Below, piece by piece: positions 48,256 through 51,089 of a DNA stretch of 58,957 nt. Position 1 is the first letter of the stretch; each line of letters starts with the position of its first letter. Origin of the DNA: Candidatus Uhrbacteria bacterium CG10_big_fil_rev_8_21_14_0_10_48_16 (GTDB lineage: Bacteria; Patescibacteriota; Patescibacteriia; UBA9934; GWF2-40-263); NCBI GenBank assembly GCA_002793515.1, contig PFEU01000015.1:1-58957 (forward strand), read 5' to 3'. The position numbers and the translations under genes were made by a program. Below the pieces are notes generated by a model. That model did no database searches. It was not told the origin of the DNA and saw only the letters and a program-made list of their open reading frames with translations.

Positions 48256-49569
48256 TTATGGTCTTAATCGCTGAACATCTCGAGGAAATATCGTTGCCTC
48301 TTTAATATTCGCAAGCCCAAGCACGTTTTGTGTCAGACGCTGAAGTCCCATCCCCCATCCTCCTTCTGGCGGAATGCCGTACTTATGCATCATGAGATAG
48401 TCCTCAAACTCCTCTGGTTTAAGTCCTTTTGCTTTAATGCGTGCGATTTGTTCGTCGTAGCGATTAATACGCATTCCACCGGACACAATCTCTGAACCAA
48501 ATCCAATAAGATCGAAACTCAATGTCAAAGAAGGATCTTCTGGATCGAGTGCCACATAGAATGGACGTTTTGTTTCTGGATAATGCGTGATGAATAGGAA
48601 CCCTGTTCCATGCTCACGTGGAGCCCACACCGTCGACAACCACTTCTCGGCTGAAGGCGACAAATCAGGTTCGCTGGTTTCATCAATCCCCGTTCCTTCT
48701 TTATAGATCTCAAGCGCCTCTTGCAATGTAATGCGAGGAAACCGCTCTCCCAAAGGAGGGAGAGTCACTCCAAGAAGCTCGAGTTCTGGTTGGCACTCCG
48801 CCTCAACCGCTGTGAGCATCGCGCGAGTAGCTGACTCTCCATACGCCATGACGTCTTCCATACTCTCGACGAATCCCACCTCAAATTCCAACTGGTTAAA
48901 CTCGGTCAAATGTCGAGAAGTCGCAAACTTTTCCGCGCGGAACGAATAGGACACTCCATAGACCCCCTCGTAAACACCCATCGTAATCTGTTTGTAGAGC
49001 TGGGCAGACTGCGTCAGGGTTGCCTCACGTCCGTAATATTCCACTCGAAAAAACTCCGCTCCGCCTTCGGATGCTGCACCTGCCAACACAGGAAAGAAAA
49101 TTTCCGTGAAGCCCTGCCCTTCCATAAACTGACGAAAGCCATGCACCAACGCGGCTTGTACACGAAAGATCGCACGCTGTTTTGGATGACGAAGCGTCAC
49201 CACGCGATTATCTAAAAGGGTATCAAGCTGAACATCCACATCATCTTTATTCACCTCAACCGGAACCACATCTTTCACGGGAGAGAGAATCTCGAGCAAG
49301 GTTGCTTGAATTTCAACTTCCTTCGCGTTTGGATCTTTCGATTGCTTCTTCACGACCTCCCCTGTCACCTTCAAGACCGTCTCGACTTGAAGACCTTTCA
49401 GTTGCTCGAGCTGTTCAGCCGTCAACACCACTTGCACGAGACCTGATCGGTCACGCACAATCGCAAATCCAAATTTAGCCATGTCACGAAGGCGATGAAG
49501 CCACCCAGCGACGACCACTGTTTCTCCGAGCTTCTCTGGAAGCTCACGAGCAAGAATTCTATTTTTCAT
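48256..49569 (-). CDS. aspS: Aspartate--tRNA(Asp/Asn) ligase, short archaeal-like (probably non-discriminating)
   Basis: GWLHRLRD OB-fold, SEGGAEFF, QSAQLYKQ, FRAEK...RHLTEF and YGIPPEGGWGMG; no GAD insertion; start at MKNRIL (49569). Confidence 0.88.
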   Translation of the reverse strand: MKNRILARELPEKLGETVVVAGWLHRLRDMAKFGFAIVRDRSGLVQVVLTAEQLEQLKGLQVETVLKVTGEVVKKQSKDPNAKEVEIQATLLEILSPVKDVVPVEVNKDDVDVQLDTLLDNRVVTLRHPKQRAIFRVQAALVHGFRQFMEGQGFTEIFFPVLAGAASEGGAEFFRVEYYGREATLTQSAQLYKQITMGVYEGVYGVSYSFRAEKFATSRHLTEFNQLEFEVGFVESMEDVMAYGESATRAMLTAVEAECQPELELLGVTLPPLGERFPRITLQEALEIYKEGTGIDETSEPDLSPSAEKWLSTVWAPREHGTGFLFITHYPETKRPFYVALDPEDPSLTLSFDLIGFGSEIVSGGMRINRYDEQIARIKAKGLKPEEFEDYLMMHKYGIPPEGGWGMGLQRLTQNVLGLANIKEATIFPRDVQRLRP

Positions 49570-49581
49570 ACGGCACGATTT

Positions 49582-49609
49582 AAAAAGACCAGCATATACG
49601 CTGGTCTTT
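49582..49609 (-). terminator. Attenuator terminator in the aspS leader
   Basis: On the minus strand, AAAGACCAGCGT-AT-ATGCTGGTC-TTTTT, ending ~12 nt before the aspS ATG. Confidence 0.8.
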
Positions 49610-49622
49610 GATTTCATCTATG

Positions 49623-49700
49623 TTAGATAGACAAGATTGACCAGCATCGCTGAGGATCATTATTGTCGTTATTATCCACACGAAGGCTCAACTTTGTCAT
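49623..49700 (-). CDS. Putative aspS leader peptide MTKLSLRVDNNDNNDPQRCWSILSI
   Basis: 25-codon ORF with 7 consecutive Asp/Asn codons (GAT AAT AAC GAC AAT AAT GAT), overlapping an antiterminator-capable segment. Confidence 0.75.
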   Translation of the reverse strand: MTKLSLRVDNNDNNDPQRCWSILSI

Positions 49701-49710
49701 AGGTAAATCT

Positions 49711-49739
49711 ATTGTTTCTCATCCTCAGATGACTGTCAA
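49711..49739 (-). promoter_or_regulatory. Putative promoter for the aspS leader
   Basis: TTGACA(49739-49734)-17 nt-AACAAT, overlapped by the CATCCTCA/TGAGGATG inverted repeat. Confidence 0.45.
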
Positions 49740-49760
49740 ATGAGGATGTGTATTTCTCAC

Positions 49761-51089
49761 TTATGGGGTAATTCTATTGATCATGCGTGGGAATGGGATG
49801 GTTTCGCGGACGTGGTGGAGACCACAGGTCCAGGCAACGATGCGTTCGAGACCGTAACCGAACCCGGAGTGTGGGACCGAGCCGTAACGGCGCAGGTCGA
49901 GATACCACTCAAACGGAGCTGGATCAAGACCGTGCTCACGAATGCGCTCCATAAGTGTCTCGTAATCATCCTCGCGCTGGGAGCCTCCAATAATTTCTCC
50001 ATACCCTTCTGGCGCAAGAAGGTCATTGTTCAAGACGCGTGTTGGATCTGCCGGATCGCGCTTCATATAGAAGGCCTTCACCACGGCTGGATACTTTTCA
50101 AGGAAGATCGGCTTATCGTATTGCTTTGTAAGAAGCGTTTCATCGTCTGCCCCAAGATCATCCATCTCCCCAATATCACTTCCCATCTCCCGGAGCTTTG
50201 CGACCGCCTCTGCGTGCGTTAAGTGTACGAATGGCGCTTGTACTTTTTTGAGAGGTTCAACATCACGCTCCAACACCTTCAGCTCATGCGCACAGTGTTC
50301 AAGCACATCGGCAACGATGCGACAGATAAGTTCTTCCTGAATTTTCATGTTCCCTTCGTGCTCCACAAACGCGGCTTCCGCATCCATCATCCAGAACTCT
50401 GTGAGATGGCGACGTGTCTTTGATTTCTCCGCACGAAACACCGGACCGAAATCAAACGCTCGTCCGAGACTCATAATCCCCGCCTCTAGGTACAACTGTC
50501 CCGACTGAGCAAGATAGGCTTTGCTTTGAGAAGTCGTCTCATCTGCCTTCTCTTCATCTGCGAAATAATCGAGTTCAAACAAGTCTGTTGTTCCCTCACA
50601 CGACGTTGGGGTCAAAATCGGGGTATCGAATTTAATAAACCCGTTCTCGTGAAAATAGGCGTAGGTCGAAGTAATAATTCGATCACGAACACGTTGAACC
50701 GCCCACTGACTTTCCGCACGCAACCACAGATGTCGCTGATCAAGAAGAAAATCAGGACCATGCTCTTTCTTTCCAATAGGGTATCCCTCTTCCGCAATCT
50801 GAATCGCTTCGATCGATTGTCCTTCAAGCTCAAACCCAAGAGGCGCACGTGCATCCTCCTTTACCAGCCCACGAATGATGACCGAGGACTCAAGACGCAT
50901 GCCTTCGAGGATGGCCCATTGATCTTCTGGGAGATCCGTCTTCATATACACCGCCTGCATACGACCGGTCCCGTCGCGAAACTGTAAAAAGAAAATCTTT
51001 CCGCTTGAACGGAAATTATAGCACCAGCCTTTGAGTTCTACCTCTTCTCCAATGTGCTGATGAACTTGTGAAACAGTAAGTGTCGTCAT
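49761..51089 (-). CDS. asnS: Asparagine--tRNA ligase
   Basis: FLQFRDGTG, QSGQLYLEA, FRAEKSKTRRHLTEFWM, EIIGGSQRE and YGSVPHSGFGYGLER. Confidence 0.96.
   Translation of the reverse strand: MTTLTVSQVHQHIGEEVELKGWCYNFRSSGKIFFLQFRDGTGRMQAVYMKTDLPEDQWAILEGMRLESSVIIRGLVKEDARAPLGFELEGQSIEAIQIAEEGYPIGKKEHGPDFLLDQRHLWLRAESQWAVQRVRDRIITSTYAYFHENGFIKFDTPILTPTSCEGTTDLFELDYFADEEKADETTSQSKAYLAQSGQLYLEAGIMSLGRAFDFGPVFRAEKSKTRRHLTEFWMMDAEAAFVEHEGNMKIQEELICRIVADVLEHCAHELKVLERDVEPLKKVQAPFVHLTHAEAVAKLREMGSDIGEMDDLGADDETLLTKQYDKPIFLEKYPAVVKAFYMKRDPADPTRVLNNDLLAPEGYGEIIGGSQREDDYETLMERIREHGLDPAPFEWYLDLRRYGSVPHSGFGYGLERIVAWTCGLHHVRETIPFPRMINRITP

Follow-up and report, generated by a model that had tools for sequence, protein, structure and literature searches.

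In the classical attenuators of the Proteobacteria (trp, his, thr, leu, ilv and pheA), a short upstream open reading frame (uORF) carries codons for the sensed amino acid, the leader RNA engages in alternative 1:2, 2:3 and 3:4 segment pairings, and a terminator stands before the regulated genes. Synthetase genes are reached by related means: in E. coli pheST the pheM leader peptide, with its cognate codons, controls a synthetase gene by termination, and in Firmicutes aspS is under T-box leader control. Here we analyse the spacer between asnS and aspS in a Candidatus Uhrbacteria genome (G000; 987,517 bp). It lies in a stretch of 58,957 bases, contig PFEU01000015.1, which is referred to as the window. 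Judged from sequence comparison and modelled RNA folds, the spacer probably carries a promoter and, behind it, a ribosome-mediated (leader-peptide) transcription attenuator that would control aspS, the gene for aspartyl-tRNA synthetase (AspRS); we give this reading a probability of roughly 0.78. That the leader is a real, conserved cis-regulatory element follows on comparative grounds from the sequences themselves.

The classical form of leader-peptide attenuation in amino-acid operons is textbook knowledge (compare PMC1183508). The window leader shares with it the codon-run uORF, four RNA segments with predicted alternative pairings, the terminator before the gene and a predicted default of termination when the uORF is not translated. 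It departs from the classical form in several respects. Asp and Asn codons stand together in one run, the putatively regulated gene is a tRNA synthetase or a tRNA rather than a biosynthetic operon, and the host is a member of the Patescibacteria group. The uORF immediately follows the promoter, leaving hardly any 5' untranslated region (UTR), and has no Shine-Dalgarno (SD) site. In seven of the 13 leaders compared below, segment 2 also lies inside the uORF, upstream of its stop codon. Closer in terms of the target gene are pheST and the hisS paralogs of bacilli, which PMC2965389 describes as preceded by a His-codon leader under termination control. In these systems a cognate-codon leader peptide controls an aminoacyl-tRNA synthetase gene, as it would here. 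The amino acid and lineage are different here, there is no sequence similarity, and the non-cognate Asn would be sensed as well.

The promoter-proximal position of the uORF recalls the leaderless polycysteine uORFs of mycobacteria, described as Cys-responsive attenuators that control operonic expression (bioRxiv 10.1101/834739). As far as that description goes, both systems have a short ORF at or near the transcript 5' end, a one-sided codon content and control by amino-acid supply. The present case differs from the Cys-responsive uORFs in its predicted Asp/Asn sensing; it has a clear terminator with a predicted antiterminator. T-box leaders of Firmicutes resemble it in outcome, since low charging of the cognate tRNA leads in T-box genes, and would lead here, to antitermination before a synthetase gene; no T-box fold or motif is present here, and sensing would proceed through the translating ribosome rather than by direct binding of tRNA. 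An exchange of T-box and leader peptide at the same gene between phyla is noted in PMC2965389. This 2010 survey states that such systems were by then known from no groups other than Proteobacteria, Actinobacteria and its own Firmicutes case. For aspS itself, PMC2659441 lists upstream of the Shewanella gene a 'tRNA synthetase leader' of unspecified kind, together with a terminator. A literature search, with supplements outside its scope, found no Asp/Asn leader-peptide attenuator, no attenuator in Patescibacteria or the Candidate Phyla Radiation, and no tRNA gene under leader-peptide control. The mechanism as such is textbook; the Asp/Asn specificity and the lineage would be new as far as the literature found extends.

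Architecture and conservation of the aspS leader

On the minus strand of the window the gene order is recO, asnS, a 191-nt gap, aspS, scpA and scpB (Table 1). The initial annotation had placed in this gap a 25-aa uORF with seven consecutive Asp/Asn codons and, right before aspS, an intrinsic terminator. Both are present in the sequence, and the uORF is also in the ORF list. Its further claim, that a 9-mer of the leader copies the 3' arm of the terminator, likewise holds. The 9-mer ATGCTGGTC is an exact copy and occurs exactly twice in the window, at 49647-49639 and at 49595-49587, both on the minus strand, against 0.37 expected from shuffles. The -10 hexamer ends 10 nt 5' of the uORF ATG, so that the predicted 5' UTR comprises a few bases only. 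At the other end of the leader, 12 nt separate the terminator from the aspS ATG (49569). GACCAGC/GCTGGTC forms the G/C core of the terminator as read on the minus strand, and TTTTT follows it; because the minus-strand stem absorbs part of the T run, a simple terminator scan reports the hairpin on the plus strand only.

Table 1. Features of the asnS-aspS region of the window
Feature	Coordinates	Strand	Details
asnS, asparagine--tRNA ligase, 442 aa	49761..51089	-	NF003037, 516.2 bits (cut-off 414); stop 49763-49761
Hairpin CATCCTCA...TGAGGATG just past the asnS stop, -35 hexamer in loop	49720..49748	-	Minimum free energy (MFE) fold
Promoter-like site, TTGACA-17 nt-AACAAT	49711..49739	-	10/12 consensus matches
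Leader uORF, 25 codons + stop, MTKLSLRVDNNDNNDPQRCWSILSI	49623..49700	-	ATG 49700, stop 49625-49623; ORF list
Segment 1, GACAAAGTTGAGC, uORF codons 1-5	49686..49698	-	Pairs with segment 2 in full-length MFE fold
Regulatory codons 9-15, GAT AAT AAC GAC AAT AAT GAT (3 Asp, 4 Asn)	49656..49676	-	Sequence
Segment 2, ATGCTGGTC (49647-49639) + AATCTTGTC	49630..49647	-	Partner is segment 1 or segment 3
Inner hairpin UAUCUA-ACA-UAGAUG spanning the uORF stop	49615..49629	-	ViennaRNA fold; enclosed by the 2:3 antiterminator
Intrinsic terminator AAAGACCAGC-GTATAT-GCTGGTCTTT + T run	49582..49609	-	Hairpin -15.0 kcal/mol
Terminator arms: segment 3 AAAGACCAGC; segment 4 GCTGGTCTTT	49609-49600; 49593-49584; T run to 49582	-	
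aspS, archaeal-type AspRS, 437 aa	48256..49569	-	NF003483 'aspartate--tRNA(Asn) ligase', 467.6 bits (cut-off 353)

The same architecture recurs in 12 other genomes. The shared design consists of a TTGACA promoter, a uORF of 14-27 codons with a run of 5-8 Asp/Asn codons and an occasional Glu codon, a copy of the 3' terminator arm, and an intrinsic terminator. The initial annotation had made its proposal depend on relatives carrying both the Asp/Asn-rich uORF and the duplicated arm, and all 12 further genomes do. In each of the 13 leaders an exact TTGACA is followed by a 16-17-nt spacer, an xAxxxT hexamer, 7-12 nt and an ATG. Twelve of them came from a search pattern independent of the promoter, yet all show TTGACA at the matching distance. 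An in-frame stop is present in every leader uORF.

Conservation is confined to particular parts of the uORF. The peptides diverge outside the run (MTKLSLRV..., MYYAT..., MHRISLA..., MTHTTISRR...). Within it, the middle A of five consecutive codons (A36, A39, A42, A45 and A48 of the alignment) is invariant in all 13 leaders. Among the five leaders of genus g4 the run differs by AAT/AAC alone, and codons 2-6 vary in amino acid. As the invariant columns fall on every third base and the g4 run changes only between AAT and AAC, the constraint looks as if it acts on codon identity and not on a conserved peptide or RNA motif. The spacing behind the run is also held within limits: segment 2 starts 10 nt past the last regulatory codon in nine leaders and 7-13 nt past it in the rest. 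The uORF stop lies 5' of segment 2 in the six leaders in which it does not lie 3' of it. A stop on either side of segment 2 implies that the peptide tail is not conserved and is a by-product of the RNA. In leader L143, from Ca. Peregrinibacteria, the helix has a different sequence, GGTCGTCT / AGACGACC / GGTCGTCT, arranged by the same logic.

The run and the fold of the window leader both exceed what shuffled sequence yields. When the 191-nt gap was shuffled 200,000 times, no ATG-started frame with at least six consecutive Asp/Asn codons arose. Across the whole genome (both strands and all frames), only two runs of at least seven RAY codons occur; one is the leader run and the other sits inside a 694-aa ORF that encodes an acidic protein. 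The 197-nt gap sequence used for folding has a z-score of -3.7, a stability that none of 200 shuffles matched.

The absence of an SD site before the uORF agrees with translation starts in the window genome at large. An SD-like motif precedes 119 of 758 long ORFs (16%, against a background of 11.5%), T occupies position -1 in 62% of long-ORF starts, and aspS itself has no SD site. Translation initiation in this organism is apparently independent of SD pairing. All 13 leader uORFs begin with TATG or GATG right behind the promoter, 12 of them with T at -1. In the Peregrinibacteria leader the ATG stands 7 nt past the -10 hexamer and would make a truly leaderless start.

Alternative folds and a model for control

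Each of the 13 leaders was folded in three forms: at full length, cut before the 3' arm of the terminator, and cut with a 28-nt ribosome footprint imposed. The folds fit a 1:2 / 2:3 / 3:4 scheme. At full length the MFE structure contains the terminator in most leaders and keeps the 2:3 pairing instead in three (G083, L143 and G051); the 1:2 helix is part of the MFE structure in 10/13. In leaders that are cut and carry no ribosome, segment 3 pairs with segment 2 in 10/13. Placing the footprint on the first regulatory codon gives 2:3 pairing in all 13, and placing it on the last gives it in 12. In these models the stall geometry frees the antiterminator strand and a passing ribosome does not, and segment 1 acts as the anti-antiterminator. 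Folding of both conformations, as the initial annotation had suggested, yields comparable energies in the window, the terminator hairpin at -15.0 kcal/mol and the antiterminator at about -16, and the alternative folds are energetically feasible. The annotation had further described an inner TCTAT/ATAGA stem over the uORF stop. A stem at this position does exist, and ViennaRNA prefers another register for it, UAUCUA/UAGAUG (49629-49615).

Comparison across leaders supports the two helices to different degrees. The terminator is present in all 13; in its alignment 89.9% of cells are paired and five of ten pairs have changed on both sides, a number reached in none of 500 shuffles. For the antiterminator the share of paired cells is 90.1%, where slid controls reach 8-42%, and one-sided changes keep G-U pairs. 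The stem covariation that the annotation proposed to look for is thus found for the terminator and not for the antiterminator. As segment 2 is nearly invariant, the latter shows conserved complementarity, not covariation.

These features suggest the following model. We infer that transcription begins a few bases 5' of the uORF AUG, which would leave the mRNA nearly leaderless, and that the uORF is translated. If it is left untranslated, or if the ribosome runs on to the stop codon, segment 2 would be paired with segment 1, covered, or left behind. With segment 2 unavailable, segments 3 and 4 would form the terminator and RNA polymerase would stop 12 nt before aspS. A shortage of charged tRNA-Asp or tRNA-Asn would stall the ribosome on the seven Asp/Asn codons, where it would mask segment 1. 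The leading edge of the stalled ribosome would then lie just short of the GCTGGTC core, which starts 10 nt past the last Asp codon. Segment 2, once free, could pair with segment 3, the terminator would not form, and read-through would allow aspS to be transcribed. Since a second terminator-like hairpin comes next, 3' of aspS (48238-48212), the regulated unit is probably aspS alone. asnS, whose start lies 12 nt past recO, shows no separate leader in the sequence or the ORF list; it lies 5' of the attenuator and is outside its control.

Occurrence among relatives and downstream genes

The gene 3' of the leader is aspS in 11 of the 13 cases and tRNA-Asn(GTT) in the other two, and in all 13 it follows the unit within about 10-110 nt. 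The aspS genes concerned are of three unrelated types: archaeal-type in four genomes (G000, G007, G083 and G085), a 466-aa bacterial type in six (G008, G031, G012, G082, G086 and G088), and a 597-aa bacterial type behind L143. All 11 aspS leaders hold both Asp and Asn codons. The two tRNA-Asn leaders (G055 and G051, which belong to another family) hold Asn codons only, in the uORFs MTYLTNNNNNNNNQHCWSI and MQMNRNNNNNNPQLSWSV, and each has its own TTGACA promoter, terminator-arm copy and terminator, followed directly by tRNA-Asn(GTT). These units, at L088:135-359 in G055 and L075:1078-1302 (minus strand) in G051, have 8 and 6 consecutive Asn codons, respectively. From their anatomy they may represent leader-peptide attenuation of a tRNA gene. 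Asn-only leaders before tRNA-Asn tie codon content to the regulated gene in a suggestive way; as independent lineages are few, the link carries no statistical proof. Asn codons exceed Asp codons in most leaders (7:1 in L143, 4:2 in g4), and in G007 and G008 the run is broken by Glu codons.

Across the order, the 437-aa archaeal-type aspS and the 466-aa bacterial type, which has no insertion domain, share the slot after asnS. Both types stand in tandem in G016. In genus g4 the five leaders are nearly identical and precede either type, which suggests that one gene displaced the other in situ while the regulatory region was retained. Orthologues of the window aspS (at least 74% identity) were found in 14 of 61 related genomes; the remaining genomes have after asnS a different aspS, about 30% identical, of the 466-aa bacterial type. 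With the leader as DNA query, a match was obtained in the spacer 5' of the bacterial-type aspS in G031 and a weak one in G008, and inspection of spacers revealed leaders in G031, G008 and G012. Among 12 further upstream regions of the short bacterial-type aspS, two (G008 and G012) have a leader and ten have none. One of these ten, G006, retains the leader tail alone. In another, G026 (L062), the asnS-aspS spacer holds, instead of a leader, a long, near-perfect inverted repeat, each arm of which is about 35 nt long.

Searches with patterns extended the survey. In the 162 genomes of the order, a pattern of five Asp/Asn-type codons with YTGGTC 9-14 nt further on matched 19 times, in 14 genomes; its reversed control matched twice. 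Inspection of these matches showed a true leader in 12 genomes and other contexts for three matches (G055, G035 and G151). As the pattern demands YTGGTC, leaders with other stems would be missed. The same type of pattern matched 24 of 401 genomes at class level, G000 included, against 13 for the reversed control. None of the 24 places fetched outside G000 pairs a short uORF with a matching terminator, and with this pattern no leader was found outside the order. In a scan of all species genomes, for which 80 of 105 matching stretches were listed, 10 of the matches listed pass the filter. Nine of these are genomes already found and one is new, namely L143, which lies 5' of a full-length 597-aa bacterial-type aspS. 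In the genome of this leader (G549), bacterial-type aspS occurs as two full-length copies that share about 40% identity, and only the copy at C15:100105 has the leader. A metagenome scan with a stricter pattern matched 38 stretches and returned one true leader, whose uORF is the same as that of G082.

The metagenome scan also returned two copies of a unit that consists of a promoter and the short ORF MIIARNNDDN, with no terminator. This unit occurs in three records in all (L196, L246 and L256), one of them from Ca. Daviesbacteria and about 60 nt 5' of a tRNA-Ala gene. Its recurrence may be due to chance.

Alternative explanations, AspRS specificity and other units

The unit might be a separate small gene for a small protein or small RNA that happens to lie before aspS, with aspS transcribed by constitutive leak-through or from an unrecognised promoter and no sensing involved. 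It does have a promoter-like site and a terminator of its own, and in G007 and G008 it comes after unrelated genes. The peptide is unconserved outside the Asp/Asn run and its length ranges from 14 to 27 codons, features that speak against a small protein, and the next gene in 13/13 cases is aspS, of any of three types, or tRNA-Asn. Only 12 nt lie between the T run and the aspS ATG, which leaves no room for another promoter, and the terminator-arm copy in or beside the uORF would be left without a role. We consider such a gene improbable.

A second alternative keeps uORF-dependent attenuation and changes what is sensed: general translation capacity, or one amino acid, probably Asn, with Asp as a tolerated filler. 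If this were so, the case for a non-discriminating AspRS, discussed below, would fall. The excess of Asn codons in most leaders, the existence of Asn-only relatives, the Glu codons within the runs of G007 and G008 and the presence of an encoded AsnRS all fit this view. Opposed to it, the enzyme that would be regulated is the one cognate to Asp, and Asp codons occur in 11/11 aspS leaders and 0/2 tRNA-Asn leaders, a distribution that is suggestive given the few lineages. We hold this alternative, too, to be unlikely.

Lower still we place a translation-independent RNA switch, in which a protein or, in a T-box-like manner, an uncharged tRNA binds the GAU/AAU-rich stretch and selects the helix. 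The alternative helices would suit any ligand able to free segment 2. The leader is however only about 120 nt long, shorter than T-box leaders, and the region has no Rfam family: a cmscan search of 49300-50000 against 4227 Rfam families, with E-values up to 10, assigned it to none and yielded no T-box. The sub-threshold hits, STnc370 and isrJ, fall far below gathering and align only to the terminator hairpin. The invariant bases also follow a period of three with RAY-type variation, an ATG stands at a fixed distance behind the promoter in 13/13 leaders, and the in-frame stop is always there, features hard to reconcile with such a switch. Although a terminator does lie 3' of asnS here, a chance ORF beside an ordinary asnS terminator has a negligible probability and was ruled out by the shuffles (0/200,000 give such a run), by the order-level pattern search against its reversed control and by conservation of the unit in 12 other genomes, several without asnS upstream.

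The leader-peptide attenuator of aspS, our preferred reading, has to contend with several observations that weigh against it. The promoter and the transcription start are predicted from matches to the consensus, and in the window the -10 hexamer, AACAAT, is a weak one. In four g4 leaders the terminator is also weak, with a 5-bp core and -6.5 to -7.6 kcal/mol. No antiterminator pair has changed on both sides. In G055 the spacing is 7 nt, and a modelled footprint on the last codon blocks the 2:3 pairing. The element is clearly dispensable, being patchy and present in 12 of the 162 genomes of the order. Among the 14 genomes with the window type of aspS in the first sample, two (G000 and G007) have the leader; in the 12 leaderless ones, same-genus genomes included, aspS abuts the preceding gene. 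The Peregrinibacteria leader is a singleton, with no uORF of at least four consecutive Asp/Asn codons at any of 29 aspS loci of its relatives.

Further points of this kind concern the specificity of AspRS. It is plausible that the AspRS of the window is non-discriminating, which would explain the Asn codons. If AspRS also charges tRNA-Asn, GatCAB would convert Asp-tRNA-Asn to Asn-tRNA-Asn and a run that includes Asn codons would make sense; sensing of Asn codons to induce AspRS makes sense only if AspRS helps to make Asn-tRNA. The window genome encodes gatB (517.8 bits) and gatA (492 bits summed) and has one tRNA-Asn gene in its assembly. Neither PF00733 (Asn_synthase) nor PF03590 (AsnA) has a match in this 96%-complete genome. 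With no recognisable asparagine synthetase, extra AsnRS would not relieve a shortage of Asn and extra AspRS would. On the other side, AsnRS is present, so that a non-discriminating AspRS is not required, and leaders precede bacterial-type AspRS too. The designation 'aspartate--tRNA(Asn) ligase' is a family name only and no proof of specificity. GlnRS is absent from the window genome; since GatCAB is then needed for Gln in any case, its presence proves nothing about Asn. The family name, the presence of GatA and GatB and the failure to find AsnA and AsnB are together permissive for a non-discriminating AspRS.

A similar combination is known from Thermus and Deinococcus, in which Asn metabolism rests on an archaeal-type non-discriminating AspRS with GatCAB, AsnRS is present and asparagine synthetase is lacking. 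The window genome likewise has an archaeal-type AspRS, AsnRS, GatA and GatB, with AsnA and AsnB not found. It differs in that its AspRS is assigned by family match and that GatCAB is needed for Gln anyway. We know of no attenuator in organisms of the Thermus/Deinococcus type. With regard to tRNA genes, ARAGORN called 40 in the assembly, including one tRNA-SeC call and none for tRNA-Asp; with the genome 96% complete, the missing tRNA-Asp is probably an assembly gap.

Slightly on the probable side stands a broader proposal, that Patescibacteria-group bacteria possess reusable, near-leaderless attenuators in which the codon run is retargeted: Asp plus Asn for aspS of any type, Asn for tRNA-Asn, and Phe- or Thr-rich runs for other genes. 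The Asp/Asn mix would then reflect an AspRS that feeds both tRNA pools and would serve as an in vivo read-out of tRNA-dependent Asn synthesis. Transcription and translation would have to be coupled in these organisms, and the tRNA-Asn units would be the first case of a tRNA gene under leader-peptide attenuation. Patescibacteria-group bacteria are usually described as poor in regulation; if the proposal is true, amino-acid-specific control persists in a genome of about 1 Mb with hardly any SD sites. The pattern could also be used to annotate uORFs that gene callers miss, and codon runs could hint at the role of unknown neighbours, such as a GNAT gene behind a Phe-rich leader.

Some minor features of the leaders and other units of similar appearance complete the picture, and among the latter the conserved Phe- and Thr-rich units count in favour of the attenuator reading. 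The hairpin CATCCTCA...TGAGGATG near asnS occurs in this genome only and is not kept in G007. In G007 a further 10-bp hairpin, GAGACCTCTG...CAGAGGTCTC, which lacks a T run, stands between the terminator and the aspS start (L002/L032, about 1665-1730), which is not in the window. Elsewhere in the window genome, C7:7069-6884 on the minus strand (L092) holds another attenuator-like unit, made up of TTGACA-17-TAGCCT, a uORF MKYANTFFFSFFFRFRGVCLT with 7 Phe codons and a strong terminator, followed by the gene of a 294-aa GNAT-family protein; six other genomes of the family (L264-L269) keep both the Phe-rich uORF and this GNAT gene. On the minus strand at C15:129745 (L094), the gene of a 168-aa GNAT protein is preceded by a short Arg-rich ORF, MNNVIQRISIRRRGRL, which has a terminator and a promoter-like site. 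A Thr-rich uORF, MSMQNSTSQMTTTTP, with promoter and terminator, at C4:21999-22161 on the plus strand (L093), precedes a HAD-family hydrolase that resembles phosphoserine phosphatase, and this unit is kept in two further genomes of the genus (L272 and L273).

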